The notes beneath the pieces were generated by a model. The model was not told the origin of the DNA, did not search any database, and worked only from the letters and a program-made list of their open reading frames with translations. Below, in pieces: positions 1 to 18,242 of a stretch of DNA of 27,144 bases (the stretch's first letter is position 1; every line of letters starts with the position of its first letter). The translations under genes were made by a program, and so were the position numbers. This DNA is from Acidobacteriota bacterium (GTDB taxonomy: Bacteria > Acidobacteriota > Thermoanaerobaculia > Multivoradales > UBA5704): the NCBI GenBank assembly GCA_040005235.1, contig JBDTZG010000068.1, positions 1 to 27,144 of the forward strand. Direction: 5' to 3'.

Positions 1-3000
1 CTACTCCGGTTTCCAGACCGGCACGCGACCGGGGGTCCAGGGGGCTCCGGCGGCGTCGAGTTGCGATTCGACCTTCGGCAGTTCCACCTCGACCAGGGCA
101 CGCAGCTTGTCGAGCAGTGGACCGACCTGTTCGGCGGCGATCCGGTAGTTTTCTTGGTGAGTGGCGGTCGGGGCGGAGGTGGAACCCCAGGCCCCGAAGA
201 GGATCTGGTTGACCCGATCGGAGATCGCGAGCGGCACCGGCTCGTTTCTCCTCGAAATCGTCGAGTTGCCGGATAGTTCCACTTCCAGATCTTCGAGCTT
301 CCCTTCGATCGTTTCGAGCTGGGTATAAAGAGCCGGATCCGCCCCCGCCGTCACCTCGACCGCCTTCTTCAGGTGATCGATGCGGGTCTTCGTTTCGTCG
401 ATCAAGCTCCCTGCGCCCATCACCGCCCGCTGGAGCCGGGCGACTTTGGAGTGGAAGGCGAGCACTTGGCGCTGGTCGACGGGCGGGAGAGATCCGAGGC
501 CCAGCGGTTCGGCGCGGAAGGTACGGGCCTCTCCCAGGGGGGTGAGGATGCCGTCGACGCGCTTGGCGAGCTGTACCTTGTAGATCCCAGCGGCGGCGAG
601 CGGACCGTCGATTACGCCACGGCCCGGCTCGGGATCTTCGAGGCTGATCGGCGACTCGGCCGGATAGCGCAGGTTCCAGGCGACCCGGTGGAAACCGGCG
701 GTCGCGTCGCCGATCAGACGGCGCACGACCTGGCCCTGATCGTCGGTCACGGTGAGCACGATCTCCGGTGTCGGCTCCCGCTCTTCGGCCCGCAGCGTGT
801 CCCAAGTCGGGTAGGGATGGATGTCATCGCGGGCAGCTTCGCCTTTCGGGTCTTTTTTCGCCTCGGCCTTCTCGTCCGCCTCCTTCTCCCGCTTCCAGCG
901 CTGCTTCTCCTGGGTGGTGAGACCTTCCTTCAGGTAGTAGGTGAAGACCGCGCCGAACGGCGGATTGGGCGCGGTGAAGAAGGTCGAGCCGCGGAAACCG
1001 GGGCCCGGCTCGCCGCCGGGCGCCGCTTCGATGTACATCTTGGCTGGGCGTAGGTCGAACAGCTCCGCATCCTTCGCGACCGTCGCGGGCGTCGCTTCGC
1101 GCAGCGGCGTGAGGTCGTCGAGCACGAAGAATCCGCGGCCGAAGCTCGCGATCACCAGATCGCCCTCTCGCTTCTGGACCGCGATGTCGCGTACGGCGAC
1201 CGTCGGCAGGCCACCTTTGAGCTGCAACCAACGCTTGCCGCCGTCCTTGGTGAAGAACAGCCCGAACTCGGTCCCGACAAACATGAGGTCAGGAGCGGCG
1301 GGGTCTTGCTTCACGGCATAGGCCGGGCTGGTCTTCGGCAGGTCGCCCACGATCGACACCCAGGTCCGTCCGCGGTCTGCACTCTTCAAGACGTAGGGGT
1401 TGAAGTCGCCCATCTTGTGGTTGTCGAACGCGACGTAGACGACGTTTCCATCGGCGACGCCCGCCTCCAGGCGCGAGACGTAGGCGTTGTCCGGCACGCC
1501 AGGGAACTTTTCGACCTTGCGCCAGTTCGCACCGCCGTCCTCGCTGACCTGGACCAGGCCGTCATCGGTGCCGACGTAGAGCACTCCTTCGGCGACGGGA
1601 GATTCGGCGAGCGAGACGATGTTGCCGAAAAACGAGGTCGAAGCATTCTTCGCGACCGCGTCGATACCCCACACTTTGCCCATCACGGGGAGGAGGTTGC
1701 GATCGACCTGGCGCGTGAGGTCGGGCGAAGCCGGTCGCCACGTGGTGCCCCGGTCGTCGCTGCGGAACAGCCGGTTTGCCGCGAAGTAGAGCCGGCTCGG
1801 AGCATGGGGGCTGATCAGGATCGGCGCATCCCAATTCCACTTGAGCGGCGGCTCCCCTTTGCCCGGCTGGGGCTGGATGTCCACCTGCTCGCCGCTTTTG
1901 CGGTCGTAGCGGACGAGGCCGCCATCCTGCGATTCGGCGTAGACGATGTTCGGATTGACCGGATCGACCTGGCTGAAGAAGCCGTCGCCGCCGCTCGTCA
2001 CGAACCAATCGCCCGAGACGCCGCCATGGATGTTGTTGGTCCGCGACGGGCCGCCCAGGCTGAAATTGTCCTGCGTGCCGCCGTAGACGTAATAGAACGG
2101 TTCGCTGTTGTCCAGCGCGACGCGGTAGAACTGGGTGATCGACAGGTTCGGCGTGTGGCGCCATACCTTGCCGCGGTCAAACGATTCATAGAGGCCGCCG
2201 TCGCAACCGACGAAGAGGTGCCGGGTGTCTTCCGGGTCGATCCAGACGACGTGATTGTCGACGTGCTTGTTCTCCTCGCCGACCGGTTTGAACGTCGTGC
2301 CGCCGTCCTCGGAGACCTGGAGAAAGGTGTCGATCGAATAGACGCGGTCGGCGTCCTTCGGATCGACGAACAGCTCCTGGTAGTACTGAGGCGAGGAGGA
2401 GACGGTTTTGACCGTCCTTTCCCAGCTCGCGCCGCCGTCTTTCGAGCGAAAAAAGCCGCCCGCCTTACGCGTCGATTCGATCGTCGCGTACACCGTGTCG
2501 GGCGCGGTGGGGGCGACCGCGATGCCAATGCGCCCCATGTCCTCCTTCGGTAAGCCACCCGAGAGCTTGGTCCAGGTCGCGCCGCCGTCGCGCGTCTTGT
2601 GAATGCCGGACTCCGGGCCGCCGTCGATCAGGGTCCAGACGTGACGCCGCCGCTGATAGGCCACGGCATAGACGACGTCCGGGTTGCGCGGATCGAACGC
2701 CAGATCCGAGACGCCGGTGTTTTCCGAGATGTCGAGCACCTTCTTCCAGCTCTTGCCGCCGTCGGTCGTCTTGTAGAGGCCGCGGTCGCCGCCGGAAGCC
2801 CAAAGCGGCCCTTGCGCCGCCACCCACACCACTTGTGAGTCGCGCGGGTCGATCAGGATCTTTCCGATGTGCTCGGATTTGCCCAATCCCATGTTCTTCC
2901 AGCTCGCCCCGCCGTCAGTCGACTTATAGACGCCATCGCCCCAGGAGACGCTCCGCTGGCTGTTGTTCTCGCCGCTGCCGGCCCAGATCGTCAGCGAATC

Positions 3001-3519
3001 CTTGGAATCGATCGCCAGGCAACCGATCGAGTTGACCGACTCGCCGTCGAAGATCGGCTGCCAGGTGACGCCCCGATTAGTGCTCTTCCAAATTCCCGCT
3101 GCCGCGGCCGCCAGATAGAGAACGCTCGAATCTCTCGGATCCGCAACGAAATCGGTGATTCGTCCGGACGTGAGCGCCGGCCCGATCCCGCGCAGCTCCA
3201 GCCCCGAGAAGGTATCGCCGTTCCAAGGGTCCTTCTTCTTGGCGTCCTTCTTGGCGTCCTTCGCCTCGGCCCTCTTGAGCTTTGCCTTTTCGTCCTTCTT
3301 CGTCCCCGCGGCGGCCTCCTGTTCGCGCTTCGCCGCGGCCTCGCGTTCGTCTTTCCTCTGCTGTTCTTTGGCGAGCTCTTCCTTTTTCAGCTCTTCCTTC
3401 TTGGTCTTGGTCGGATCTTCCTGCTGCGCGTTCGGCTCTTGCGCAAGAGCCAAGGGCACGAGCCCCGTCACGAAGAGGAGTCCCATAAGGACTGCGAGGG
3501 CGATCACTCTCTGTTTCAA
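1..3519 (-). CDS. Secreted Asp-box (BNR)/VPS10-sortilin-like beta-propeller protein (putative glycosyl hydrolase) with C-terminal coiled coil
   Basis: Many Asp-box repeats (STNRGVTW, STDGGASW, TTDGGKSW, SKDGGASW, SDDRGTTW, SEDGGANW) and the motifs GPALTSGRI and GGTQDN. Start moved from 3639 to TTG at 3519 because GGAG lies 7 nt upstream and a signal peptide follows (MKQRVIALAVLMGLLFVTGLVPLALA-QE). Stop TAG at 1-3. Confidence 0.85.
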   Translation of the reverse strand: MKQRVIALAVLMGLLFVTGLVPLALAQEPNAQQEDPTKTKKEELKKEELAKEQQRKDEREAAAKREQEAAAGTKKDEKAKLKRAEAKDAKKDAKKKDPWNGDTFSGLELRGIGPALTSGRITDFVADPRDSSVLYLAAAAAGIWKSTNRGVTWQPIFDGESVNSIGCLAIDSKDSLTIWAGSGENNSQRSVSWGDGVYKSTDGGASWKNMGLGKSEHIGKILIDPRDSQVVWVAAQGPLWASGGDRGLYKTTDGGKSWKKVLDISENTGVSDLAFDPRNPDVVYAVAYQRRRHVWTLIDGGPESGIHKTRDGGATWTKLSGGLPKEDMGRIGIAVAPTAPDTVYATIESTRKAGGFFRSKDGGASWERTVKTVSSSPQYYQELFVDPKDADRVYSIDTFLQVSEDGGTTFKPVGEENKHVDNHVVWIDPEDTRHLFVGCDGGLYESFDRGKVWRHTPNLSITQFYRVALDNSEPFYYVYGGTQDNFSLGGPSRTNNIHGGVSGDWFVTSGGDGFFSQVDPVNPNIVYAESQDGGLVRYDRKSGEQVDIQPQPGKGEPPLKWNWDAPILISPHAPSRLYFAANRLFRSDDRGTTWRPASPDLTRQVDRNLLPVMGKVWGIDAVAKNASTSFFGNIVSLAESPVAEGVLYVGTDDGLVQVSEDGGANWRKVEKFPGVPDNAYVSRLEAGVADGNVVYVAFDNHKMGDFNPYVLKSADRGRTWVSIVGDLPKTSPAYAVKQDPAAPDLMFVGTEFGLFFTKDGGKRWLQLKGGLPTVAVRDIAVQKREGDLVIASFGRGFFVLDDLTPLREATPATVAKDAELFDLRPAKMYIEAAPGGEPGPGFRGSTFFTAPNPPFGAVFTYYLKEGLTTQEKQRWKREKEADEKAEAKKDPKGEAARDDIHPYPTWDTLRAEEREPTPEIVLTVTDDQGQVVRRLIGDATAGFHRVAWNLRYPAESPISLEDPEPGRGVIDGPLAAAGIYKVQLAKRVDGILTPLGEARTFRAEPLGLGSLPPVDQRQVLAFHSKVARLQRAVMGAGSLIDETKTRIDHLKKAVEVTAGADPALYTQLETIEGKLEDLEVELSGNSTISRRNEPVPLAISDRVNQILFGAWGSTSAPTATHQENYRIAAEQVGPLLDKLRALVEVELPKVESQLDAAGAPWTPGRVPVWKPE

Positions 3520-3619
3520 GGCGCTGCTCCTATCAGTGGTTACGCGACTGTGCCGGCGGGAGGCACACGGGCTCCCGGAAGCATACGGCGGCAGGAGCCA
3601 GAAGGTTCTGGCCGCCCCC

Positions 3620-6600
3620 CTACCGAACCGCCATCCCATCCGGCTCCCGGCCGGTCTCGATCACCCGCACGACATCCAGGCTTTCAGTGTCGATTTCGAT
3701 CACCCGGTCGGATTGCGTGGCGGCGACGTAGGCGCGTCTTCCCGAAGGGGCGAAGAGGAGGCCCACGGGAGCGGGGCTGTTGGCGAAGCGATCGCCGAAA
3801 AGGCGATCTTTCGCTTCGGCGACGACGCTCAAGTCGAGCTTTTTCCTCAGCGTTTCGCGTTTCCGCACCGGGTCGATGGCGACCACTTCTCCCGATTTGG
3901 TGGCGGTGACCAGGGCGCGCAGGCCGCGCGGGGAAAAGGCGATGCGAATGGGATAGCCGGAGCAAGGGACGGTGGCGATCACCGTGAGGCGATCGGCGTC
4001 GATGACGGACAGCGTGTCGGCTTCGCGGTTGGTCACCCAGACCTCCCTCGTGCCGGGGCGGAAGGCGATCCCTTCGGCGCCGGCTCCGGTGGGGATGTCC
4101 TTCAACTTCTGGCCGGTCCCTAGGTCGATCACGGTGACGCTGCCCGAGCCGATATTGGCAACGAACGCGCGGTTCCCTTCCGGGGTCACCGCGACCATGT
4201 GGGAAATCTCCTGCCCGGTTGCCACCGCTCGCACGATCTGGCCCTCGCGCGGTTTGACGATCAGCAGCTCGCCGCTTCCCTCGGCGGTCACCGCGAGGTA
4301 TTGAGGACCTAGCCAGGCGAGGCCATGCGGTTTCTTGGGGGCGCCGAGATCAACTTTCTTGACGACGCTACGCGTCGCCAGGTCGATCACCGTGAGGCTC
4401 GATCCCGGCTCCGCCTTCGTGCCGTAGTCGCTCACCACCAGTGTCGTTCCGTCCGGCGAGATCGCCGCCTCGTGCGGGCCGTTGCCGGTCGGAATCGTTG
4501 CGCGGCTCTTGCCCGTCGCGGGATCGACCAGATCGACGCTCGCGTCGGATTTCCTCACGATCGCGAGGGTCTCAGCCGGCTCGACGAGCCAACGGCGGAA
4601 CCAGCCGACCGTCTGGGCGTAGCGCTCGCGCTCGCCCTCGTTGTTCAGCCGGTGCCCTTGGTCGGGGAAAATGTATAGCTCGGAGGGAACTCCCAGACGG
4701 CGCAGCGCCTTCCAGAATTCATACCCCTGCGGCGCCGGCACCTCCGAATCGCGTTCGCCATGGAGCATCAGCGTCGGAGTCTTGGCGTGGGAGACGAAGG
4801 TGATCGGCGAGCTGCGCGCGTAGATCCACGGGTCTTCTTCGACGGTCGCACCGAAGAACGGCACGAGCCAGTCATCGATCCGGTTCTGGCCCGCGTAGCT
4901 CTGCCAATTCGAGATGCCCGCTCCGGCGACAGCCGCCGCAAAGCGATCGCTCTTGGCCACCGCCCACATGACCATGTAACCGCCGTAGCTCCAGCCGAAG
5001 ATCCCCACCTGGCCCGGATCGATCGGCGCCGCCTTCGGTGCGTTGGCGACGGCAGCATCCACGCCTCGCTCGATGTCGCGGAAATCGCCATAGCCGAAAT
5101 CCTTGAAGTTCGCGGCCTGGAACGCAGCGCCACTTCCGAAGCTGCCGCGCGGGTTGGGCATCAGGACGTAGAACCCCGCCTCCGCGAGGACTCCCGCTAT
5201 GGTCGGCCAGCCGGAGTGATGCGCCGAGGACGGACCGCCGTGGACCAGCACGATCATCGCCTGACGTTTGCCCGGTTCGGGATGGAGCGGCGGAAGGAGC
5301 CAGCCTTGGATGTCCAAGCCGTCGCTCGTCCACCGCAGGTCTTTTGCCGCGCCCCAAAGCGGATGGACTCCGGCGTTTCGACGCGTGATCTGGCGCCAGC
5401 CGCCGATTTCTCCGGCCCAGATCTCGGGGGGATGCTCGAACGAATGGCGGATCATGGCCGAGGTCTTCCCGTCCGCGGCGAGCGAAAGACCGATCGCCCC
5501 TCCGGCGAGAACGAAGGATTCGGCCCCGCGCCATCGGCTCTCGATCCTTCCGGTCGCAAGCTCGACGGTCGAGATGCCGGTCGAGCCGGCGATGTTTTCC
5601 ACCCAGAGCAGACGGTCGGGGCTGGACCAGGCGAACCAGGCGGGCGACGCGGCGAAACCCGGCGTCAGGTTTCGCGCTGCGGGCCGTTGGGTGCCCTCAT
5701 TTCCGGAGGACGTATCCAAGGGGAGCGTCCAGACATCGCCGCCGGTCGAGCCGGCATCGCTCATCAAGCCTTCGATCCAGGCGACGTTACGTCCGTCGGG
5801 CGACCAGCGCGGCATGGCGATCTGAACCTTGGGCTCGTAGAGGACCCTTCCCGCCGGGGCTGTGGCGTCGAAACGCATTAGTTTGGCCACCCACCATTTC
5901 GCGTCCCCCTCCCCGTGGGCCGCCGTCGCGACGAACGCCGAGCCGTCGGGCGAGGCGTCGTACTCGTAGACGAATAGATCCGCGGGCGAGACCCACCGGA
6001 GCGCGCCGTTTGCAGCTTCGAACCGGGCGATTCGTTGAACGTCCGGATGATCGCCGACCAGGCCCGCGTCGCGCGGATGCGCCGCGAGCGGCCCTGCCGC
6101 ATCCATCCGCCCTTCGATCGCCAAAGCCGTGAGGCCCAGGCCGTCCGGCAGCCAGCGCAGATCGGCGAGCTGGCCGGCAAACCCGGTCAGGCGCCGAACC
6201 GCCGGACGGGACGTGCCGCCTTTCTTTCCGGCAGCCGGGGAGGGCGCGAGGTCGGCGAGCCAGATCTGGAGCTGCGGACTGCGGCCGTCGTCGGCAAGGA
6301 ACGCCAATCGCCGGCTGTCGGGCGAAAACGCCGGAACGGCGGCAGCGTCGCCGGGCAGATCGATCGTGGTCGGAGTCGGAGGCGAGGTCTCTGGAGAGTC
6401 GGCGGAAAGCACCGCGGTGCGGAGTGCGAGCTTGCCCGAAGGGCGGCCGTCGGCGTCGAGCAGCGCTTCCACCCAGGCGACCCGGCGGCCGTCCGGCGCG
6501 ATCGCGACGTCGCGAAAGCCCGTTCCGGCATGGAGGGCGGCTTCGATCGGATCGATCGCCGGATGAGGCGCGATCGGCGGCTTAGGGTCGGCCGCACCGA

Positions 6601-6664
6601 CCGGCAATACCGCGAGCCAAGTTCCAAGAAGCCCGAGAGCTCCGAGACGCCAATTCCGCTGCAT
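3620..6664 (-). CDS. Secreted S9-family (prolyl oligopeptidase/acylaminoacyl peptidase-like) serine peptidase fused to a C-terminal YVTN/YncE-type beta-propeller
   Basis: Signal peptide; PD40-like repeats (SPDSRRLAF, WSPDGRNVAW); HGGP, NPRGS, nucleophile GWSYGG, Asp in HGERD, His in DQGH. About 315 aa of YVTN-like repeats follow (IPTGNGPHEAAISPDG, IPTGAGAEGIAF, IETGREPDGMA). GGAGG RBS upstream. Confidence 0.85.
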   Translation of the reverse strand: MQRNWRLGALGLLGTWLAVLPVGAADPKPPIAPHPAIDPIEAALHAGTGFRDVAIAPDGRRVAWVEALLDADGRPSGKLALRTAVLSADSPETSPPTPTTIDLPGDAAAVPAFSPDSRRLAFLADDGRSPQLQIWLADLAPSPAAGKKGGTSRPAVRRLTGFAGQLADLRWLPDGLGLTALAIEGRMDAAGPLAAHPRDAGLVGDHPDVQRIARFEAANGALRWVSPADLFVYEYDASPDGSAFVATAAHGEGDAKWWVAKLMRFDATAPAGRVLYEPKVQIAMPRWSPDGRNVAWIEGLMSDAGSTGGDVWTLPLDTSSGNEGTQRPAARNLTPGFAASPAWFAWSSPDRLLWVENIAGSTGISTVELATGRIESRWRGAESFVLAGGAIGLSLAADGKTSAMIRHSFEHPPEIWAGEIGGWRQITRRNAGVHPLWGAAKDLRWTSDGLDIQGWLLPPLHPEPGKRQAMIVLVHGGPSSAHHSGWPTIAGVLAEAGFYVLMPNPRGSFGSGAAFQAANFKDFGYGDFRDIERGVDAAVANAPKAAPIDPGQVGIFGWSYGGYMVMWAVAKSDRFAAAVAGAGISNWQSYAGQNRIDDWLVPFFGATVEEDPWIYARSSPITFVSHAKTPTLMLHGERDSEVPAPQGYEFWKALRRLGVPSELYIFPDQGHRLNNEGERERYAQTVGWFRRWLVEPAETLAIVRKSDASVDLVDPATGKSRATIPTGNGPHEAAISPDGTTLVVSDYGTKAEPGSSLTVIDLATRSVVKKVDLGAPKKPHGLAWLGPQYLAVTAEGSGELLIVKPREGQIVRAVATGQEISHMVAVTPEGNRAFVANIGSGSVTVIDLGTGQKLKDIPTGAGAEGIAFRPGTREVWVTNREADTLSVIDADRLTVIATVPCSGYPIRIAFSPRGLRALVTATKSGEVVAIDPVRKRETLRKKLDLSVVAEAKDRLFGDRFANSPAPVGLLFAPSGRRAYVAATQSDRVIEIDTESLDVVRVIETGREPDGMAVR

Positions 6665-6702
6665 CTACCACCTCCGCCGCCCGTTGCGGGCAGAGGCGAA
6701 TC

Positions 6703-8019
6703 TTAGCCGATGCGCCCTCCATCGCCGCCGCGGAACTTGAGATCTCGATCGACAGACGCCTCGCGAAGGTAGGCGGACAACCGGTTCACGAAGGAGAGCG
6801 TGACCTTCTCCCGCCTTGCGGCCTCTTGGAACAGCACGAGCGACGCGAGCGCTTCACGGTGAATGTCCTGTGCCTGAAAGATCGGAATCATCGCCTCGGC
6901 GAGAAAGCGAACCTCTTCGCCCCGGCCCGCGCGAAGGTAGAACGCGGCGAGGTCCATGGAAACGATCGCGGCATCAAAGCCCATCTTCCGATCGAGGAAC
7001 GCGTCGCGCGCTGCGACGAGCGAAGCCTCTGCGGCCTCCAACCGCCCTATGCCGTCCGCCACCAGGCCCCACAGCCACTCCCGCCGAATCAAGAAAACGG
7101 GGCCGCCATGGGCTGCGAAAAGCTCCGCGTCTTCATCGAACGACTCGGACGCTTCCTCGTGCCGGCCGGAAGCGACGAGATAAGAGGTTAGATTGTGTCG
7201 AGCGCAAAGATAATCCTGGATGTCCAGATCTGGACGGATCTCGCGGAACGCGTGCTCAAGCGTCGAGATGGCGCGGATCGGATCACCGCGATAAAAATGG
7301 ACATCGGCCAAGATCAGCTTCACCTTCGCCAGCCGCTCCTCGCGTCCCGCGATCTGGTAGAGCGCGAGCGCACGTCCCAGCAGATCCTCTGCCTGGTCGA
7401 AGCGACGCTGGTCCTTGCGCAGAGATCCTTCCAAGTCGTCAACCTCGGCGAGGACTGCCAAATCTGTCACGTCTTGAGAGTGGAGCAGGAAGCGGACGTA
7501 CTCAAAGTGGCGGTCTGCTGTTCGAAGATCCCCCTGAGCCCGGCAGGCATTTCCCATCGCGGCGGCGGCCAATACATGTAAGTCAAAAGAGTTCGCTGAA
7601 CGGTCGGCGATTGAAAGTGCCAGCGCGGCCAAGTGATAGGAGACGTCGCAGTCCTCGCGTAGCGCCTCGCGGGAGGCTCCGAGGAGGCGACGCACGAGTG
7701 CAGGCCCGCGAAATCGGGAGCGCGAACGGGCGACTCGTGCCGGCCGCGCACCGACGGGCAATGCAATCAGCTCGGCGAAATCGCGGGTAGCCTGCTCTTC
7801 CGCCTCGGCAATTTTCGTCGTTGAAGCCGCCAGTAGTGGCACCATCAGCCTGGGATCGACGGCCCGATCCGATTCGAGAGGGCTTTCTCGCCAAGCGGCG
7901 ACCTCGCGCGCACAGCAGGGGCAGAGAGACGTCAAATGCTCCAAGCCGACCCGGGCTAGAAGCCGGGGCGGTAGGTCGCCGTTTGCGACCGCACGCAATA
8001 GATCCCGCGTGATGTGCAT
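6703..8019 (-). CDS. Cytoplasmic tetratricopeptide-repeat protein with N-terminal His/Cys zinc-binding (anti-sigma ZAS-like) motif
   Basis: RBS AGGGAGG directly upstream of ATG. N-terminus MH...EHLTSLCPCC. TPR-like helices (AMGNACRAQGDLRTADRHF, LEGSLRKDQRRFDQAEDLLGRALALY, LADVHFYRGDPIRAISTLEHA, HNLTSYLVASGRHEEA). No signal peptide or TM segment. Confidence 0.8.
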   Translation of the reverse strand: MHITRDLLRAVANGDLPPRLLARVGLEHLTSLCPCCAREVAAWRESPLESDRAVDPRLMVPLLAASTTKIAEAEEQATRDFAELIALPVGARPARVARSRSRFRGPALVRRLLGASREALREDCDVSYHLAALALSIADRSANSFDLHVLAAAAMGNACRAQGDLRTADRHFEYVRFLLHSQDVTDLAVLAEVDDLEGSLRKDQRRFDQAEDLLGRALALYQIAGREERLAKVKLILADVHFYRGDPIRAISTLEHAFREIRPDLDIQDYLCARHNLTSYLVASGRHEEASESFDEDAELFAAHGGPVFLIRREWLWGLVADGIGRLEAAEASLVAARDAFLDRKMGFDAAIVSMDLAAFYLRAGRGEEVRFLAEAMIPIFQAQDIHREALASLVLFQEAARREKVTLSFVNRLSAYLREASVDRDLKFRGGDGGRIG

Positions 8020-8103
8020 CAGATCCTCCCTCGGACCAGAAATTCGATTTCGATGGGGCTATTACCCAACTAGGTGAGAGAACTTGGGATTTCGTGACAA
8101 GAG

Positions 8104-8143
8104 CAAGAAAGGGCTGCGAGCGGCAACCTGCCGTTCGCAGCCC
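8104..8143 (-). terminator. Intrinsic terminator downstream of the DPNG prepeptide gene
   Basis: Minus strand reads GGGCTGCGAACGGCA-GGT-TGCCGCTCGCAGCCC (15-bp stem, one mismatch) followed by TTTCTTG, 12 nt after the stop codon at 8156. Confidence 0.7.
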
Positions 8144-8155
8144 TGACGGCCTCAT

Positions 8156-8407
8156 TCAGCCATTGGGATCGACGGTAACGCCCCTCTCTGCGGTAGAGGT
8201 TCCGCCTGAATCGGCCCCGGGGGCGGCGGGCGTTGGCCGGCCGTTGGGATCGATCGTACCGCCACGATCCGAAGCAGCCCACACGGCCTGCGGGTGACTC
8301 TCTCCGCCGAGAAATCCGTGGAACAGCTGTTCCAAACGACCGAACCAGGAGCCGTCGGCGAAGAGCAGACCTGCGAGGAGAAGCGAAGAAGCGGAGCGAC
8401 GAAACAT
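8156..8407 (-). CDS. Small secreted prepeptide (83 aa) with two [DE]RG[GV]T[IV]DPNG core repeats; putative signalling-peptide precursor
   Basis: Strong RBS AGGGAGGT about 5 nt before ATG. Basic/hydrophobic N-terminus MFRRSASSLLLAGLLFA, then an amphipathic segment WFGRLEQLFHGFL. Repeats DRGGTIDPNG and ERGVTVDPNG, the second ending at the stop. Followed by a terminator. Confidence 0.75.
   Translation of the reverse strand: MFRRSASSLLLAGLLFADGSWFGRLEQLFHGFLGGESHPQAVWAASDRGGTIDPNGRPTPAAPGADSGGTSTAERGVTVDPNG
8159..8269 (-). repeat. Two imperfect 30-nt repeats encoding DRGGTIDPNG (8240-8269) and ERGVTVDPNG (8159-8188)
   Basis: 7/10 identical amino acids, with D/E and I/V conservative. Several identical residues use different codons (CGT/AGG, ACG/ACC, AAC/AAT), which points to protein-level conservation. 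Confidence 0.8.
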
Positions 8408-8557
8408 GAAGCACCTCCCTCATCGAGGATGCTGCCGGCCGCGCCTCTTTGGCCCGGTGGCGCGACCCTCCCAAGGAAAAAGGTGCCGGAAAAGAGAATT
8501 TTCAAGTAGCGATCCGCCAACGGCGACTCAAAAATGCGGCTTACGCTCGCTCACCGC

Positions 8558-11263
8558 CTAGAGCTGAGCACGCACCTCGGCCAGTCGGCGGGCGAGCTCA
8601 TGGGCGGAGTCCGGACGCCGGGTGCGCGCCCTGTGCAGCGTGCCCCGGAACAGCTCGACCAGCGCTTTCGGGGTGTCCGGCCGTTCGGCAGCAAGGTCAG
8701 GAACCCGAACCAGCTGGATTCGCACGCTCAGCTGCCGGTCGTTGTCGCCGGAAAACACCTTGCGTCCCAGCAGACATTCGAACAACACGACCGACAGGCT
8801 CCAGAGGTCGCAGGCCACGTCCGGCGCCCCGCCGTTCAAGATTTCGGGCGCGAGGTACGGCAGCGTCCCGGCCATGACGTGCGAGGCCGTCGAAGCGGTC
8901 GAGGCGTTGGCGGCCGCCGCCCTCTCCCGGCTCGTTCCGGTGGAACTGCCGGGCCGTCCGCCGATCCAGGTAGGCGGCAACAGGGTCGAGTCGATGTCCT
9001 CCTGCGGCAGCTCGGAGTTCCTCGGGCTCTCGCGCTCCGTGCTTCCCGGAGCGCGGGCGATGCCGAAGTCCATCAGCTTCGGCACGCCCTCGCCCGAGTA
9101 GCCGATGTTGCTCGGCTTGACGTCGCGATGAAGGATATCGGCCTCGTGCAGCCGCTCGAGCGCCCCGGCCATCGCGATCCCCAGATCGATGGTTTCGAGC
9201 GGAGATAGCTGACCTTCCGTCAGGCGGTCGGCGAGCGTGCCCCCGGCCAGATATTCAAAGATCATGATCGGCGTGCCGAGCCACGTTTCGATGCCGTACA
9301 CCCCGGCGAGATGGGTATGAGAAAAACGCGCCGCCGTCCGCGCCTCGCGGCGCAGACGCACCGCGTCCTCCGGCGAGACCCGACGCAAGGTCTTCGCCGC
9401 GATCGGGCGGCCGAGCGCGAGATCCGTACCACGATAGACGACGCCCATTCCCCCAATGCCGAGCCGCTGCTCGAAACGGTAACGACCGGGCAGGATGTAC
9501 GGAATCGGCGCCGACTCCAAGCGGTGGCTGCACTTGCCGCAATAGACCAGGAAGGCGCGGTACAGCCCGCCGCAACTGAGGCACTCGCGCGCGGCCTCCG
9601 CGGCCGGCCCGAATCGCTCCGGCTCGGCGCGGCTCGGATCGTCATGAGGTGCGCTCTCTTCGATCGGACGGGCGGCTTCGCGCTCGCGGCTGGACTGCAG
9701 CTCCAACCCAAGCGCCGCGGTCCGCGCAACGTCCGCGAGCAGCCGCCGATCCTCGCGCAGAAACGGCAGCTCGCTCTTCTTTGTGCCGAGCGCGATCACC
9801 CCGAGCAGCGAACCGCTGGCCGCTTGAATCGGCACCAGGAGCCGCAGCTCGGCGTCGGCCAACCAATGGCGATCGGCCTCCGGCAGCAGAGCGAGCGGCG
9901 AGCGCGGATTTTCGAGGTCGACGTCCAGTGGTTCGCTCGCCTCGGCGATTTTGAGCCCGAGCGGCGAAGAGGCATCCAACCGCCGCGCCCGGCGGCGCGG
10001 ATCTTCGAGCTGGCCGGTTCGGTGATCCTCCAGGAGCAGCGCCGAATGCTCCAAGTGAAGCGCCCGGTCGATGCCGCCGAGGATCAGGTTCGCCAGATCT
10101 TCGGGACTTGCCGCGGTGCGGATCCGCTGGACCAACTCAGTCAGGATCTGGCGGGCATCTACCTGTTCCCGGAAGAAATGCCGGTCGAGCGCGGCGAGGA
10201 TCGGCCGCCGGAACCAGAGCATCGCCAGCCCGACCGCCGCGGGAAAACCCAGGCGCAGCACTTTCCCTTCTGAGAAGACTTCGCCGATCGGCCGCGCCCG
10301 TTGCTCGAAGAGGTACCAGACCATCAAGCCAAACGGGATCGCCCCCAGCGCGACCACTGTCGCGCGGGCCATGGCGTAACTGACGATACCTCTCGCGATC
10401 AATCGCAGGTCGAGCACCTGATGGACCAGCACCGCGTAAGCGGAAGTGAACGGCACCGACCAGAGAAACGAAAAGCAGAGCGCGATCAGCAGCGCCCGGT
10501 GAGCGGCGAAAGCGGCTCCGATCGGCGGCACGACGGCGCCGAGCACGAACTCACCGAAGTTCGCGACGACCATCGGCGCGAAGCCGAGCAACAAAGCCCC
10601 CAACAAGAGACGGACGCGGCGGCGGTCTTCCCCGGTTTCGCCCCGTAAACGCCAGGCGATCATGCCCAATCCTGGCACCAAGGCGGTGAAGACGAACCCC
10701 CAGAACAGACTGCCGTCTTCGCGATCGAGCATCGCGCCCCACCGGGAGAGCGGCATTCCGGCGATCTGTTGGAAGGCGCCGAAAAGGTTCACCGCGAAGA
10801 GGATCACGCCTCCCCAGGTGGTCAGCCGAACCGCTGCCGATCCGAGTCGGCGCTCGTACCAATCGAGGTGCCCGTGAGGAAAGCGGAGCGCGAAGCGCCA
10901 GAGGAACAGCGGTAAGAAGGCATCCACCTCGAGTTCTTCGAGAAGCTTCGGTAGTACCCCCCATCCGGGCAGCCGCGCCCCCGCTTCGGCCCAGATCCGC
11001 AGCGGGGCGTTGTCGAACGTCGAAGCGAGCAGGAGATAGAGAACGCCCAGGTCGAACGCCCGCCGGTCGTTGCGACCGCCGATCAGGAACACCAGGGCGC
11101 CGAGCGCGAACGCCCCGGCCGAGAGGACACCGCGGTAGTCCGCGAGCCATCCGGTGCCGATCGGGACCAGCGCCCCCGGCACGCTCAGATATGCCACGAA
11201 GGTGGCGGCCACCTTGACCAGCGCCACCGCCACCAAGAGGTGAACCCAACCGCTCCGTTTCAT
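8558..11263 (-). CDS. Polytopic membrane Hanks-type Ser/Thr protein kinase (multi-TM sensor - GAF - zinc ribbon - kinase)
   Basis: About 9-10 hydrophobic segments in the first ~355 aa; linker LDRHFFRE; GAF-like region (LLVPI...LLGVIALGTKKSELPFLREDRRLL); CLSC-x10-CGKC; kinase motifs GIGGMGVVY, IAAK, REAR, HRDVKPSN, DFG, GTLPYLAPE, DLWSL. RBS AGGGAGGG upstream. Confidence 0.9.
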   Translation of the reverse strand: MKRSGWVHLLVAVALVKVAATFVAYLSVPGALVPIGTGWLADYRGVLSAGAFALGALVFLIGGRNDRRAFDLGVLYLLLASTFDNAPLRIWAEAGARLPGWGVLPKLLEELEVDAFLPLFLWRFALRFPHGHLDWYERRLGSAAVRLTTWGGVILFAVNLFGAFQQIAGMPLSRWGAMLDREDGSLFWGFVFTALVPGLGMIAWRLRGETGEDRRRVRLLLGALLLGFAPMVVANFGEFVLGAVVPPIGAAFAAHRALLIALCFSFLWSVPFTSAYAVLVHQVLDLRLIARGIVSYAMARATVVALGAIPFGLMVWYLFEQRARPIGEVFSEGKVLRLGFPAAVGLAMLWFRRPILAALDRHFFREQVDARQILTELVQRIRTAASPEDLANLILGGIDRALHLEHSALLLEDHRTGQLEDPRRRARRLDASSPLGLKIAEASEPLDVDLENPRSPLALLPEADRHWLADAELRLLVPIQAASGSLLGVIALGTKKSELPFLREDRRLLADVARTAALGLELQSSREREAARPIEESAPHDDPSRAEPERFGPAAEAARECLSCGGLYRAFLVYCGKCSHRLESAPIPYILPGRYRFEQRLGIGGMGVVYRGTDLALGRPIAAKTLRRVSPEDAVRLRREARTAARFSHTHLAGVYGIETWLGTPIMIFEYLAGGTLADRLTEGQLSPLETIDLGIAMAGALERLHEADILHRDVKPSNIGYSGEGVPKLMDFGIARAPGSTERESPRNSELPQEDIDSTLLPPTWIGGRPGSSTGTSRERAAAANASTASTASHVMAGTLPYLAPEILNGGAPDVACDLWSLSVVLFECLLGRKVFSGDNDRQLSVRIQLVRVPDLAAERPDTPKALVELFRGTLHRARTRRPDSAHELARRLAEVRAQL

Positions 11264-11296
11264 CGCGGCGCGAACCCTCCCTTTAGGAACGCGCCA

Positions 11297-11620
11297 TTAG
11301 GTTTGCGCCGATGGGCAATAGGGTGTGCCCGATTCGCTCTCGACAGTCAGGCAGGCGCTCTCCATCGTCGTCGCGGAGATCGATCCTCCGCTGGAAAGCG
11401 AAGCGGCGAGCGCGCCGATATCGCGGCAGCGGTCGAGAATATCGCCACCGATCGTGCTCCAGGCATCCTGCGGCGTTCCACGGCCGGGTTGAGAGGTCAC
11501 GATCCAAGCATAACCGTGATTCTCCAAGTAAGTCGCGGCGGCTTCTTCGAGCGAGGCTCCGCCTGCCCCCTGACCGATGGCAAACACCATTTCTCCGTAG
11601 ATCGTGTCCTGACTCGGCAT
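11297..11620 (-). CDS. Small acidic Ser/Thr-rich protein (107 aa), possible histone-fold-like protein, co-transcribed with the kinase
   Basis: GGAGGAG RBS (11627-11633) 6 nt before ATG at 11620 (MPSQDTIYGEMVFAIGQGAG...TPYCPSAQT). Sigma70 promoter upstream; 33-nt gap to the kinase start. The fold assignment is inference from the helix pattern only. Confidence 0.7.
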   Translation of the reverse strand: MPSQDTIYGEMVFAIGQGAGGASLEEAAATYLENHGYAWIVTSQPGRGTPQDAWSTIGGDILDRCRDIGALAASLSSGGSISATTMESACLTVESESGTPYCPSAQT

Positions 11621-11699
11621 GTTCGTCTCCTCCACGAACGCGAAATCCCGAGCCGGAATGGCGCAGGATGCGCTCATGTGACTGAAAACTTTTGTTTGC

Positions 11700-11728
11700 A
11701 GTGTAGAGACGAAATGAAGCAATTGCAA
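11700..11728 (-). promoter_or_regulatory. Sigma70-type promoter for the small protein-kinase operon
   Basis: Minus strand TTGCAA-N17-TACACT in a locally AT-rich stretch, about 80 nt upstream of ATG 11620. Confidence 0.65.
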
Positions 11729-11785
11729 CGACTGGATTGGGGCGCGCCAGCCGGACACGCCCCGATTCGGGAGGACTGTCGGCGC

Positions 11786-12403
11786 CTAGTACTTGACCGA
11801 GCAGCCGTACGGCTGGGTCACGGCGGGGTTCAGGGGCCGGCCCGCCAGCTCGGCGCCAAGGCCGGAATCTACGTAGTTCACCCGAGCCGGCTTCGCCTTG
11901 CGGCCGCTCGGGTCGTCGTCGATCGCGCCGTTGTAGGCGATCTTTCCCGTCGGATCGACGATGAACATGTGGGGCGTGGTCTTTGCGCCATAGGCATGGC
12001 CGACGTTGCCGGTCGGATCGTAGAGAATCGAGTAGCCGATGCCGTTTTTCTTCGCCCAAGCCAGGTGCTCGGCGGGCGGCAGGTAGTCCTGATGCTTGGG
12101 GTTCGTGCTGTTGATTCCGAGCCAGACCACCTGAGCGTACTTCTTGTTCAGGTCGACCATGGTCTTCTCCCGCGCCTGGCGGTCGGAGAACGGACAGTTC
12201 GGGTTGATCCATTCGAGCACCACGACCTTGCCCTGATACTGATCGAGCGACTGCACCTTGCCGTTCAGGTCGGTGAGCTTCCAAGCGGGAGCTTTTTCGC
12301 CCACCGCAACGGTCGCCGCCGCGGGCAGGGTCCCGAACGCAAGAACTGCCCCAAGCGCCAGGCTGGCGGTGACGAGTGCGGTACGAATTCTCTTCATCTT
12401 CAT
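11786..12403 (-). CDS. Secreted thioredoxin-fold redoxin (AhpC/TSA, peroxiredoxin-like)
   Basis: Signal peptide; VGEKAPAWKLTDLNGK; VVLEWINPNCPF; YGAKTTPHMFIVD; YNGAIDD; C-terminal YGCSVKY. Confidence 0.85.
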   Translation of the reverse strand: MKMKRIRTALVTASLALGAVLAFGTLPAAATVAVGEKAPAWKLTDLNGKVQSLDQYQGKVVVLEWINPNCPFSDRQAREKTMVDLNKKYAQVVWLGINSTNPKHQDYLPPAEHLAWAKKNGIGYSILYDPTGNVGHAYGAKTTPHMFIVDPTGKIAYNGAIDDDPSGRKAKPARVNYVDSGLGAELAGRPLNPAVTQPYGCSVKY

Positions 12404-12448
12404 CGTGTTCCCTTCTCCTCGGTTGACGGTCGTATTGGGAAGGTCGGT

Positions 12449-13618
12449 TTACCGGCAGGCCCTCCGGCGGAAAAGCCAGAAGGCGAGCCCCAGCCCGAGC
12501 AGAGCAAGCTCGATGCCCGCCAGCCCCGGCGCCGTCACCCGGATCGCGAGCAGATAAAGACAGGCGACGACGAGGCCGAGCGCGGCAAAGCCGAGCAGGC
12601 CGCGCCCGAGGCTCGCGGATTCCTTCCCCCAGAGCGCCATGGCCACTGCCAGGAACCCCGCGGCGAGCACGGCCAGCAGGATCGGCATCCATTTCACCGC
12701 GGAGCGTGAAGCTTGGGAGGCCGCGACGGAACCCGGCGTGGCGAGCTGCCGCCGCACTTCCAGAGCGACCGGCGCCCCTTTCTCGACCAGGCCGACCGCG
12801 GTGAAGGCGAGGGGAAATCTCTTCGGTAGAGGGAGATCGGTCCGGCGCGGCACCAGCGGCAGCTCGAAACGGACGCCGCCCGGCAACCGCAGGACGACCG
12901 GCCGGCCGATCTCGAACAGCTCCTGAGGCTCGACGAACAGGTCGGAAGCGGGCGAAGCCTCGACACCTTCGAGCTCGATGTCGAGGACGAGGGAAGACGC
13001 CGAACGCGCCAGCTCGGCACGGACCGCGACGCCCGGAAGCGTGCCATCCCGGCGGGGTAGCGACTCTTCGGCCCGATCGAGCAGCGGCGCGGTCTCCGAA
13101 TCGTCGGCCGACGCCGGAGCGAGGGCCAGGTCGAGCGCCAGGCGGTAGCGGTAGGGGACGCAGTCGACTTCGCAGGTCAAGTAGTCGACGTCCGCCTCGA
13201 TCCGCACACTCTTGGCTCCCGCCGGGGCTAAGTACTGCCGGGGTTTGAGCGGATAGACGACCTCCCCCTCGTAGCCGATCGCGAACAGGCCGCCGGAGAG
13301 CGCAAAGCGACGCGGCGCGGGAAACTCGATCTCGACCGTCGGCTCTCGGCCCACCAGCTCCGGCGGCGCGAGCAGATCGACGCGCGGCGGAAACCCCGCG
13401 TCGCCCGGGTTCTTCCAGTAGACGTGCCAACCGGGCGCGGTGCGGAACTCGACGCCGAGGCGGATCGGCGCCTCGTTCCCGGACGCCAAAGCGGATTCGG
13501 CGGCGATCAGGCGGACCGCCCCGTGCGGGTTCGTCTGCCAGGGACTCGTAGCGGCGGCCGCCAGGGCAGGCAGCGCTAGGCCCGAGAGAAGTGCGATCGG
13601 GGGCAGTAACGTTTTCAG
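12449..13618 (-). CDS. DsbD N-terminal (Ig-like CxxxC) domain protein with three C-terminal TM helices; probable CTG start
   Basis: APGWHVYWKNPGDAG and YLTCEVDCVP motifs. The frame extends 43 codons upstream of the called TTG (13489) to CTG 13618, giving a signal peptide (MKTLLPPIALLSGLALPALAAA) with GGAGG 9 nt upstream. Confidence 0.75.
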   Translation of the reverse strand: MKTLLPPIALLSGLALPALAAAATSPWQTNPHGAVRLIAAESALASGNEAPIRLGVEFRTAPGWHVYWKNPGDAGFPPRVDLLAPPELVGREPTVEIEFPAPRRFALSGGLFAIGYEGEVVYPLKPRQYLAPAGAKSVRIEADVDYLTCEVDCVPYRYRLALDLALAPASADDSETAPLLDRAEESLPRRDGTLPGVAVRAELARSASSLVLDIELEGVEASPASDLFVEPQELFEIGRPVVLRLPGGVRFELPLVPRRTDLPLPKRFPLAFTAVGLVEKGAPVALEVRRQLATPGSVAASQASRSAVKWMPILLAVLAAGFLAVAMALWGKESASLGRGLLGFAALGLVVACLYLLAIRVTAPGLAGIELALLGLGLAFWLFRRRACR

Positions 13619-13674
13619 AGTCGGGGTCCTCCAGGTCGGGCAGCGCTTACGGGTTAAGATCCTACCGGTTCCCG

Positions 13675-14970
13675 ATGCGCGTCTACTTCACCAACCTCGG
13701 CTGCAAGCTCAACCAGGCGGAAACCGAGCGCTGGGCGCGCGATTTCGCCGCCGCCGGATGGCAGGTGGCGGCCGAGATCGAATCCGCCGATCTCCACGTG
13801 GTCCACTCCTGTACGGTCACCGCGGAGGCCGAGCGCTCCTCCCGCCGCGCCGCCGGCCGGGGGAGGCGCAAGGGGTTGCCACTGCGCACGGTCCTCGCCG
13901 GCTGTTACGCGACGTCCCACCCGGAGGCCGCGGCGCGCGCGGCGGGAGTCGATCTGATCGTCTCGAACCAAGAAAAGGCGGACCTGCTCCGTCTCGTCAC
14001 TCGGGCGTTTCCGGATCTTTCTCCAGAGCCCCTTCCGGTCGAGATCGAAATCCCTTGCTCTGCTCCTGAACCCGGTCGGACGCGGACGTTCCTCAAAGTG
14101 GAGGACGGCTGCGACATGCGTTGCGCGTTCTGTATCATCCCATCGGTGCGCGGCGGCCAAAGGAGCCGGCCGCTGCCCGAGGTGATCGCCGACCTCCGCG
14201 CCCTCGCCCCACCGGACCGCCCCGGGGCGCCCGAGATCGTGGTCACCGGCGTACAGATCTCTTCCTATCGTTGGCAGGGGCTGCGCCTGCCCGACCTGGT
14301 GGCCGCCTTGTTGGATGCTCTCCCCAAGGGAGAGCGGGCTCCCCGCTTGAGGCTCTCCTCGATCGCTCCGTGGGAGTTCGACCGGCGCCTGCTGCCGTTG
14401 TTCGCCGATCCGCGTCTCTGCCGCCACCTGCACCTGTCGCTCCAGAGCGGCGCCGCCGCAACCCTGAAGCGGATGCACCGACCGCACACCCCCGAGCGCT
14501 ATGCCGACCTGCTCGGGGAGATCCGCGCGGCGGTGCCGGGGGTCGCGATCACCACCGATGTGATCGCCGGCTTCCCGGGCGAAAACGATGAGGATTTCGA
14601 AGAGAGCCTCGCGTTCGTCGCCCGGGTGGAGTTCGCCAAGATTCACGCCTTCCCCTATTCCCCCCGGCCGGGCACCGAGGCTGCGAATCTGCCTGGACAA
14701 CTCCCGACCGCGACCATCCACGCCCGGAACCTCCGGCTGATCGCCCTCGCCGCCGAGGCCGAGCGCCGCCATGCCGAACGCCAGATCGGCCGGCGAGCAA
14801 ACGTCCTGTGGGAAAACCCGCGCCGAGGTCTCGACGGACCGATCGGCCAAGGGCTCACGGGCGACTACCTCCGCGTGCTCTGTCCGGAGGCGGCGGGCCT
14901 CGCCGGAACCTTTGCGGCGGCTGATCTGTTCGAGGTCGCCGCAGGCGGCGTAATGGGCCGCCTGAGTTAG
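13675..14970 (+). CDS. mtaB: Radical SAM methylthiotransferase, MtaB-like (tRNA ms2t6A37)
   Basis: N-terminal UPF0004 domain (NLGCKLNQAE, SCTVT, AGCY); LKVEDGCDMRCAFC (CxxxCxxC); HLHLSLQSG; TTDVIAGFPGE; HAFPYSPRPGT. Start set at ATG 13675. Confidence 0.75.
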   Translation: MRVYFTNLGCKLNQAETERWARDFAAAGWQVAAEIESADLHVVHSCTVTAEAERSSRRAAGRGRRKGLPLRTVLAGCYATSHPEAAARAAGVDLIVSNQEKADLLRLVTRAFPDLSPEPLPVEIEIPCSAPEPGRTRTFLKVEDGCDMRCAFCIIPSVRGGQRSRPLPEVIADLRALAPPDRPGAPEIVVTGVQISSYRWQGLRLPDLVAALLDALPKGERAPRLRLSSIAPWEFDRRLLPLFADPRLCRHLHLSLQSGAAATLKRMHRPHTPERYADLLGEIRAAVPGVAITTDVIAGFPGENDEDFEESLAFVARVEFAKIHAFPYSPRPGTEAANLPGQLPTATIHARNLRLIALAAEAERRHAERQIGRRANVLWENPRRGLDGPIGQGLTGDYLRVLCPEAAGLAGTFAAADLFEVAAGGVMGRLS

Positions 14971-15025
14971 GATCTGCGACCGGCGACGCGCGGGCGCCGT
15001 CCCTTTCCTCGGTGGAATTCTCACG

Positions 15026-18170: not shown

Positions 18171-18242
18171 ACGGCCCAATCCGAATTCCAAACATTCAAA
18201 GCGGCTCGCCATCCAAGCCCCGAGCCCTTAGAGGGAACTGCG

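Follow-up and report, generated by a model that had tools for sequence, protein, structure and literature searches.

The window analysed here, a stretch of 27,144 nucleotides of DNA from an Acidobacteriota bacterium, contains two adjacent genes on the minus strand, one encoding a small prepeptide-like protein with two copies of a DPNG-type core and the other encoding a tetratricopeptide-repeat (TPR) protein of 438 aa, and together they constitute one cassette of a two-gene family that is specific to the lineage and heavily expanded. The initial annotation of this DNA had read the pair as an undescribed peptide-signalling module. The reading that we favour, and to which we give an even chance of being correct, is likewise a peptide–receptor module resembling the RRNPP systems, in which the small protein would be an exported multi-core propeptide, the TPR protein would be its cytoplasmic receptor and a ChrR-like anti-sigma domain would provide the output in the type of cassette found in the window.

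The cassette family in the genome and in related genomes

The genome to which the window belongs (6.22 Mb, 66% GC, 140 contigs) contains 41 open reading frames (ORFs) related to the TPR protein (tblastn with the TPR protein, E ≤ 1e-3). The N-terminal motif H-x3-5-C-x1-2-C is present in 20 of the 41, which are referred to here as zinc-type, and most of the other paralogues start with an XRE-like helix-turn-helix (HTH) domain; among seven non-zinc paralogues scanned, HTH_3 or HTH_31 was matched above the cut-off in three and below the cut-off in two. A hidden Markov model of the small protein, based on 12 seeds found upstream of zinc-type genes and run on 96,679 six-frame segments at E < 0.01, retrieved 30 members in the genome, 29 of which lie within 2 kb of a TPR paralogue; among the 18 members that were not seeds, 17 are adjacent to a TPR gene. 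The simple motif G..[IVM]DP[ND]G, the use of which had been suggested in the initial annotation, was found in 12 six-frame segments of this genome, ten of them small ORFs with a signal-peptide-like start, and eight of these ten are located within 2 kb of a TPR paralogue, compared with 3.06% of the genome.

Two arrangements account for all but two of the 29 cassettes. In 13 cassettes both genes are on one strand, with the small ORF first and approximately 75–400 bp between them, and 12 of these 13 TPR proteins contain the zinc motif as judged by a regular expression. In 14 cassettes the two genes are convergent, with the small ORF on the opposite strand 3–131 bp past the 3′ end of the TPR gene; when six of the convergent TPR partners were scanned against Pfam, HTH_3 or HTH_31 was found above the cut-off in three and below it in two. 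The arrangement tracks the receptor type, the upstream position going with the zinc type and the convergent position mostly with the HTH type. Tandem pairs of HTH-type TPR genes with a small ORF on the opposite strand between them were also observed (contigs C118, C18, C137, C8 and C79), and a small ORF in this position therefore converges with the receptor gene on one side and diverges from that on the other.

The 30 small proteins contain between one and four cores each (65 cores altogether), with the consensus W-A-[ED]-x-G-[C/x]-x-[ILV]-D-P-[NSD]-G-[RK]-[CP], and in the convergent type nearly every core is bracketed by cysteines in the form G-C-x-[ILVF]-D-P-x-G-x-C. A core is located no more than five residues from the C-terminus in 19 of the 30 paralogues and in 18 of 20 orthologues of the window protein. 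The motif A-x-A occurs at residues 13–45 in 25 of the 30 small proteins. In 13 of the 30 prepeptides RR is present within the first 15 residues (for example, SRRIFLL), and such motifs may indicate export by the Tat pathway instead of the Sec pathway.

The family is not limited to this genome. In a survey with an alignment of 20 paralogous small proteins as the query (E ≤ 1e-5), small proteins of the family were found in 80 of 81 genomes from the taxonomic family to which this genome belongs, and all 11 genera were represented. The matches number more than 1,100, with a maximum of 39 in one genome, and bear out the earlier suggestion that small proteins of the DPNG/DPDG type recur in this lineage; the lineage itself had also been guessed correctly, the orthologous loci being in metagenome-assembled genomes of Thermoanaerobaculia and Holophagales. 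A phylum sample of 300 other genomes gave only five weak matches to the small protein (E between 3e-5 and 9e-4), one of them in an unpublished genome (G189), and the TPR protein is similarly restricted, with matches at E ≤ 1e-10 in four of the 300 genomes, three of which belong to the same order. In five genomes from five other genera, a TPR paralogue was present in the 1.5-kb flank at 30 of the 30 fetched loci, with the same rules of arrangement, and a divergent cassette was found in a different family of the order, where a 46-aa ORF containing the segment ...RGVTVDPNG... and starting like a signal peptide precedes a zinc-type TPR gene by 189 bp. With 29 of 30 members paired in the genome and all 30 loci paired in the other genera, the association of the DPNG-type small ORFs with TPR homologues is clear.

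The small repeat-peptide gene

The prepeptide gene encodes 83 aa (8156..8407 on the minus strand, stop codon included) and starts with an ATG located 6 nt beyond the Shine–Dalgarno sequence GGGAGG (8414..8419, cctccc on the plus strand). The protein begins with MFRRSASSLLLAGLLFADGSW, and its first 18 residues, MFRRSASSLLLAGLLFAD (8354..8407), are signal-peptide-like by a heuristic and constitute the best-conserved stretch among the orthologues. They are followed by a Trp-containing 'pro' region (residues 19–46, GSWFGRLEQLF...AVWAAS; 8270..8353), which is of the same type in all paralogues and is better conserved than the rest of the mature protein. Core 1, DRGGTIDPNG, comprises residues 47–56 (8240..8269) and was assigned from the translation and the orthologue alignment, and core 2, ERGVTVDPNG, comprises residues 74–83 (8159..8188) and is flush with the C-terminus, directly before the stop codon. 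The strong ribosome-binding site, the signal-like start and the two cores named in the initial annotation can all be read directly in the sequence. The variable parts of the two cores, DRGGT and ERGVT, resemble the CSF/PhrC pentapeptide of Bacillus, presumably by coincidence.

The small ORF has 19 homologues among other proteins, with identities of 57–72%. It is found without internal stops in six of the seven other genomes of the genus, the frame is intact in 7/7 matching genomes and the ratio of nonsynonymous to synonymous substitution rates (dN/dS) is 0.22–0.45 for three orthologues. In the orthologue alignment the N-terminus, MFRRSASSLLLAGLLFADGSWLGRLEQLF, is nearly invariant, the first I-D-P-N-G is conserved and the linker is variable, and the second core is flush with the end of the protein (at the core Gly) in 15 of the 20 orthologues. 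The GC content at third codon positions (GC3) is 0.64 in the small ORF and 0.70 in the TPR gene, whereas it is 0.82 in the flanking kinase gene and 0.81 in the flanking S9 peptidase gene; the low value of the cassette would fit either weak codon bias or a history of its own.

No family for the small proteins was found in Pfam and NCBIfam, against which nine of them were scanned. The matches to DUF4148 (E 0.0044, 17.8 bits with a cut-off of 27) and BDV_P10 (E 0.11) are below the cut-off and are confined to one of the nine proteins, and they were rejected. Searches of the ESM Atlas returned only clusters of 'hypothetical proteins' of Acidobacteriota, with scores of 0.83–0.85.

The TPR receptor-like protein

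The TPR gene (6703..8019, minus strand) starts with ATG 6 nt beyond a further Shine–Dalgarno sequence GGGAGG (8025..8030, cctccc on the plus strand) and encodes a 438-aa putative cytoplasmic receptor, in which a zinc-binding anti-sigma (ZAS)-like domain and a TPR sensor were delineated from the ORF, Pfam, the alignment and an AlphaFold2 (AF2) model. The spacer between the small ORF and this gene on the same strand is 136 nt, so that the earlier statement that one gene is immediately followed by the other holds, as does the description of a TPR protein without an export signal: Pfam TPR_12 is matched with 37.2 bits (cut-off 30.1) and there is no hydrophobic N-terminus. Between the two genes a GC-rich hairpin followed by the U-rich run UUUCUUGCUCUUG forms a terminator-like site (8098..8144, minus strand). 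The terminator scan of the window gave two sites compared with 2.6 expected from shuffles, so the spacer hairpin is only a lead; terminator-like hairpins were also seen downstream of other small ORFs in a listing made without a shuffled control, and these are leads in the same sense.

The ZAS-like domain comprises residues 1–48 (7876..8019), with H2, H28, C33 and C36 as the putative zinc ligands in the form of a His followed by H-x4-C-x2-C. An alignment of 88 sequences shows C33 and C36 to be invariant, with at least 90% conservation of H2 and H28. A profile of the first ~64 residues of 15 paralogues matched the anti-sigma domain of ChrR (2q1z_B, residues 3–48) with an E of 5.8e-6, and DdvA and RslA with E of 0.026 and 0.11, respectively. 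The anti-sigma-like nature of the zinc motif, which had been proposed from the sequence, is supported both by this match and by the genes for sigma factors of the extracytoplasmic function (ECF) type that are found directly upstream of two paralogues. The cluster at 12000–17100 of contig C103 (locus L008) has the order sigma, zinc-type TPR, sigma, small ORF, sigma, zinc-type TPR; the sigma and TPR genes abut, and the small ORF encodes a triple core, with AGIQIDGNG present three times. The order of sigma gene and then zinc-type TPR gene recurs in two genomes of another family (loci L085 and L086), in one case preceded by a small ORF with a signal-like start.

The sensor module (residues 69–433; 6721..7815) consists of a linker helix and a TPR superhelix, as assigned from the AF2 model and hhalign, and is homologous to the sensor of the HTH-type proteins (hhalign probability 100%, E 2.2e-72, 363 columns). 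By this alignment, the family has one TPR sensor of ~360 residues with an exchangeable N-terminal output domain, which is either a ChrR-type zinc domain or an XRE HTH domain. With the TPR protein as the query, the number of representative clusters matched was 4,686 at E ≤ 1e-3 and fell to 654 at E ≤ 1e-30.

The AF2 model of the window protein is all-helical, with a predicted local distance difference test score (pLDDT) of 93.6 and a predicted TM-score (pTM) of 0.90, and the model of an HTH-type paralogue has a pLDDT of 90.7. In a fold search against 48,161 chains, the highest matches were LGN (Z 23.0, root-mean-square deviation 4.5, 299 residues aligned) and Pins (Z 21.9), followed by RapI (Z 20.9, 4.4, 297 aligned), NprR–NprX (Z 20.7, 5.8, 308 aligned), a phage Rap with its peptide (Z 20.6, 4.1, 282 aligned) and APPBP2 (Z 20.4). 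MalT, AimR and PlcR were found lower in the list, Foldseek agreed and the HTH-type model gave a similar list. The likeness to Rap and NprR that had been anticipated is therefore found among the top matches, where it is tied with generic peptide-binding TPR proteins such as LGN; the predicted fold is that of a peptide-binding TPR superhelix, and RRNPP proteins are not singled out by it.

Divergence of the pair

When the window was compared with its closest relative (locus L082), the DNA identity was 65–75% in the bins of 6900–8699, which hold both genes, and 86% in the bin of 6600–6899, compared with 83–98% elsewhere and 90–97% in the adjacent flanks. In the same comparison the synonymous divergence (dS) of the TPR gene is 1.83 with a dN/dS of 0.10 and that of the small ORF is 0.53 with a dN/dS of 0.45, whereas the dS of the flanking genes is 0.10–0.21. 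Among the 15 pairs formed by six orthologous loci, the identity of the TPR protein is 73–82% throughout, with flank identities of 78–96%. The cassette is thus a sharp divergence island, and the pair diverges as a unit. Judged from the sequences, the island looks like the result of allele replacement or of a long-kept polymorphism, as at pherotype loci, and this pattern would also fit any gene pair with fast turnover.

The co-variation of peptide and receptor among paralogues, which the initial annotation had proposed as a check, was found in one type of cassette. In the convergent type the distances between small proteins and those between TPR proteins are correlated (Mantel r 0.56, p 0.0002, n 14); in the type to which the window belongs the correlation is not significant (r 0.10, p 0.23, n 13).

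Proposed mechanism and its weak points

In the favoured RRNPP-like reading, we infer export, processing, uptake and peptide binding, as well as the identity of the partner and the regulon, as follows. The prepeptide, with its signal peptide, Trp-containing amphipathic pro-region and one to four cores, would be exported and cut into core peptides, which would build up outside the cell and re-enter it. The core peptides would then bind in the concave TPR groove of their own receptor, and binding would alter the hold of the zinc domain on a partner, most likely an ECF sigma factor, whereby a regulon would be switched. Each cassette would be a private channel.

Binding was examined by complex prediction with the TPR alignment and residues 18–83 of the small protein, that is, the whole mature region, as the partner, in three runs with three controls. 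The median score was 0.48 (runs of 0.71, 0.48 and 0.46), the best control reached 0.02, the contact agreement was at least 8% and the pLDDT of the partner was at least 35, a result that is graded as weak support. Of 80 solved complexes 58 reach the mark set for this score, as do two of 110 mismatched pairs; passing scores of 0.60 or less were obtained for only seven of the 80 solved complexes and for both of the passing mismatches. We take the predicted complex as a slight push towards binding.

A number of observations weigh against the RRNPP-like reading. On the side of the peptide, the window prepeptide has the least canonical signal of the 30 paralogues, with an uncharged run of 13 residues and no A-x-A by the heuristic used, and the I-D-P-N-G scaffold is conserved among the orthologues rather than diversified. 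The organism is presumably diderm, so that a peptide of 8–12 residues must cross the outer membrane twice, and the genome contains only one SBP_bac_5 (OppA-type) gene. The Cys-bracketed cores imply an oxidizing compartment, yet the receptors are cytoplasmic. On the side of the receptor, no RRNPP-specific family was matched by the window protein and 15 paralogues in Pfam and NCBIfam, which gave generic TPR and HTH matches only; the scan was confined to these two libraries. Any long TPR protein would give such fold matches, LGN, subunits of the APC and MalT being tied with Rap and NprR. With respect to the output, the spacing H-x4-C in the window type is one residue longer than in the ZAS motif H-x3-C-x2-C, Pfam zf-HC2 is not matched by the window protein and reaches 18.0 bits (cut-off 22.2) in one of eight zinc-type paralogues, none of the 35 Sigma70_r2 matches in the genome is on the contig of the window and the C103 cluster is the only place in this genome where cassettes are adjacent to sigma genes. 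Finally, the Mantel correlation is not significant in the window's own type, co-divergence and joint replacement are also expected of any adjacent genes that move together, and the score of the predicted complex falls in a range in which passes are more often wrong than right. The quorum-sensing interpretation of the initial annotation is partly supported: its genomic predictions are all borne out, whereas no RRNPP-specific family is matched and the fold similarity to Rap and NprR is tied with that to LGN.

The sole SBP_bac_5 gene (contig C8, 64502–65602) is located approximately 4.6 kb from an HTH-type cassette (C8, 57982–59888), possibly by chance.

Neighbouring genes in the window

The order kinase, small ORF, TPR gene, S9 peptidase and BNR protein is kept throughout the genus. 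The S9 gene (3620–6664, minus strand), which starts 38 nt downstream of the TPR gene, encodes a secreted protein of 1014 aa in which an S9 prolyl-oligopeptidase-family domain is fused to YncE-like β-propellers, and it is followed by a gene for a 1212-aa BNR/sortilin-Vps10 protein (1–3639, minus strand), which is syntenic in the genus. The small ORF is directly preceded, on its own strand, by the gene for a 901-aa protein (8558–11263, minus strand) with a long hydrophobic N-terminal region as judged by eye, a GAF domain and a Ser/Thr kinase domain; it is 78–95% conserved in the orthologous loci and is located outside the divergence island. The S9 peptidase, the kinase and the BNR protein were considered as parts of the module and were rejected, since their synteny is limited to the genus, they are outside the divergence island and they are not repeated at other cassettes: paralogues of the three are absent beside the other 28 cassettes, with the exception of a kinase 4 kb from one cassette. 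Likewise, no third gene or modifying enzyme recurs beside the 29 cassettes of the genome, which agrees with the earlier remark that no modifying enzyme is evident. As the neighbours are not repeated at other cassettes, the module consists of the two genes alone.

Farther upstream of the kinase gene, the ORFs at 11283–13430 and 13654–15087 (both on the minus strand) have no Pfam match, and they show dN/dS values of 1.2–2.3 with low dS in comparison with the orthologous loci; the GC3 of the 715-aa ORF is 0.50, compared with ~0.8 in real genes of this region. These two are probably not true reading frames, and better-looking frames are found at 12449–13489 (minus strand, GC3 0.85) and 13591–14970 (plus strand, GC3 0.82). 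The region of 15970–20068 on the plus strand contains a lysine/diaminopimelate row consisting of genes for an amino-acid kinase family protein, DapB, DHDPS and a tetrahydrodipicolinate N-succinyltransferase-like protein.

Alternative explanations

The alternative that survives best, although we regard it as rather unlikely, is that the pair is a regulator and its product: the small protein would be a secreted effector, such as a bacteriocin-like, matrix or metal/Ca-binding peptide, and the TPR protein, as the transcription regulator or anti-sigma factor dedicated to it, would sense some other cue without any binding of the peptide. Adjacency, co-duplication and a joint divergence island would arise just as readily from the pairing of a regulator with its target, the Cys-bracketed loops would suit a stable extracellular effector, and the generic TPR fold and the modest complex scores agree with this possibility. 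On the other hand, some 30 private regulators for some 30 peptides with no recurring transporter, immunity or modification gene would be unusual for effectors, the C-terminal position of the cores and the multi-core propeptides parallel pheromone precursors as described in PMC11343458, and a TPR sensor with an HTH or partner-binding output beside a secreted propeptide is the RRNPP design.

A second alternative, which we consider improbable, is a cytoplasmic partner switch, in which the TPR protein would bind the unexported precursor through its pro-helix or its cores, so that the rate of export would set the amount of free regulator. Class II type III secretion chaperones, which bind their substrates, provide a precedent, and the TPR protein shows a sub-threshold similarity to one such chaperone, SctY (E 0.0009–0.17), albeit far below the cut-off (12–20 bits compared with 70). 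The conservation of the Trp-containing pro-region beyond that of the rest of the mature protein would also be in line with a partner switch, and it was the whole mature region that served as the partner in the complex prediction. Sec substrates, however, leave the cytoplasm constitutively and quickly, and both the Cys brackets and the repetition of cores towards the C-terminus suggest that the protein acts after export.

The third alternative had already been raised in the initial annotation and is, in our view, very improbable: the small protein would be the multi-core precursor of a ribosomally synthesized and post-translationally modified peptide (RiPP), the cores of which would be modified or macrocyclized by enzymes encoded elsewhere, with the neighbouring S9 prolyl-oligopeptidase-family protein as the candidate in the window. 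A conserved leader-like N-terminus, repeated variable cores, a Pro in every core and the short distance to the S9 gene all speak for a RiPP; the restriction of the S9 gene to this one cassette, its position outside the divergence island and the lack of any recurring modifying enzyme beside the 29 cassettes speak against it, and the N-terminus is more of an export signal than a leader peptide.

Finally, a chance ORF with a fortuitous repeat, which the abundance of spurious ORFs in high-GC genomes and the GC3 of only 0.64 might suggest, is refuted by the conservation of the small ORF, with its 19 intact-frame homologues, dN/dS below 0.5, strong ribosome-binding site, 30 paralogues that agree in architecture and position and a total of more than 1,100 matches spread over 80 of 81 related genomes, and its probability is negligible.

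Significance and comparison with known systems

As far as our literature searches reach, the cassette is undescribed. The source annotations of the family proteins are limited to 'helix-turn-helix transcriptional regulator', 'TPR repeat protein' or 'hypothetical protein'. No report of RRNPP systems in Acidobacteria was found in the literature, where the supplementary tables of RRNPP_detector, which were outside the search, might list non-Bacillota candidates; among titles and abstracts nothing relevant on quorum sensing or cell–cell signalling in Thermoanaerobaculia was found, and other phyla are not dealt with in the portions consulted of the preprint 10.1101/2023.09.19.558401.

Acidobacteriota are abundant in soil and difficult to culture, and if the RRNPP-like reading is true the cassettes would represent a new communication or kin-recognition system in soil bacteria, with up to ~39 cassettes per genome, a new form of sigma-factor control in which an anti-sigma domain is gated by a peptide-binding TPR module and a large natural library of orthogonal peptide–receptor pairs for synthetic biology. 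A more far-reaching picture, to which we give somewhat less than an even chance, is that Thermoanaerobaculia possess dozens of private pheromone channels per cell, which would be the first RRNPP-style network of cytoplasmic receptors in a diderm phylum other than Bacillota; the output gated by the single TPR sensor would be an XRE repressor/activator in some cassettes and a zinc anti-sigma domain in others, the signals would come from propeptides that are multi-core and partly disulfide-cyclized, and the cassettes would be exchanged or diversified like pherotype alleles. The divergence island would moreover serve as a natural experiment on the turnover of alleles in the manner of pherotypes. 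If the peptides are effectors instead, the family would still be a large and as yet undescribed class of secreted repeat peptides with Cys loops, in which every peptide has a regulator of its own.

Several known systems share single features with the cassettes. The eukaryotic LGN/Pins proteins likewise have a TPR superhelix that holds extended peptides in its concave groove; this is a resemblance of fold only, with identities of 15–17% and no functional or evolutionary link. In the Streptomyces XRE–DUF397 systems (WhiJ–BldB), many paralogous pairs of XRE regulator and small protein are present per genome (PMC10294661, PMC6262351, PMC10364602), as is the case for the XRE-type pairs here. The DUF397 proteins, unlike the small proteins of the cassettes, are not secreted repeat peptides, no TPR sensor is mentioned in those papers and no sequence relation to the cassettes was found.

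With respect to the output, a C-terminal TPR extension is reported in passages on the ECF42 group (PMC7826278) to be an on-board regulator of ECF-type transcription. In ECF42 the sigma factor itself bears the TPR domain, whereas in the cassettes the TPR domain has an anti-sigma-like domain as its fusion partner and a gene for a secreted peptide alongside. The zinc-type receptors recall the ZAS proteins ChrR, RsrA and RslA in their conserved His followed by H-x4-C-x2-C, albeit with a His–Cys spacing longer by one residue, and in the ECF sigma genes directly upstream of two of the paralogues. They differ in that the protein here is soluble and has a TPR module of 360 residues in place of the cupin or transmembrane sensor, and in that most copies, including that of the window, have no adjacent sigma gene.

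The closest parallel in design is provided by the RRNPP(A) systems, namely Rap–Phr, NprR–NprX, PlcR–PapR, Rgg–SHP and AimR–AimP. As in these systems, a putatively exported propeptide with one or more C-terminal cores is encoded beside a cytoplasmic TPR receptor, and half of the paralogues have an N-terminal XRE HTH domain, as in PlcR, NprR and Rgg. Many paralogous cassettes per genome are also a feature of Rap–Phr, and multi-pheromone propeptides exist in the Rap–Phr systems of phages (PMC11343458). RRNPPA is treated as a Firmicutes trait in the parts consulted of PMC10075063 and PMC9765709, whereas the host here is a member of the Acidobacteriota (Thermoanaerobaculia) and presumably diderm. 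The receptor in the window has a zinc anti-sigma-type output and not an N-terminal HTH domain or the three-helix domain of Rap, the cores share a G-x-x-I-D-P-x-G scaffold and are often bracketed by cysteines, and the gene order is peptide-first or convergent. Since no RRNPP profile is matched and the output domain is different, the cassette of the window belongs with RRNPP(A) by design and not by membership.

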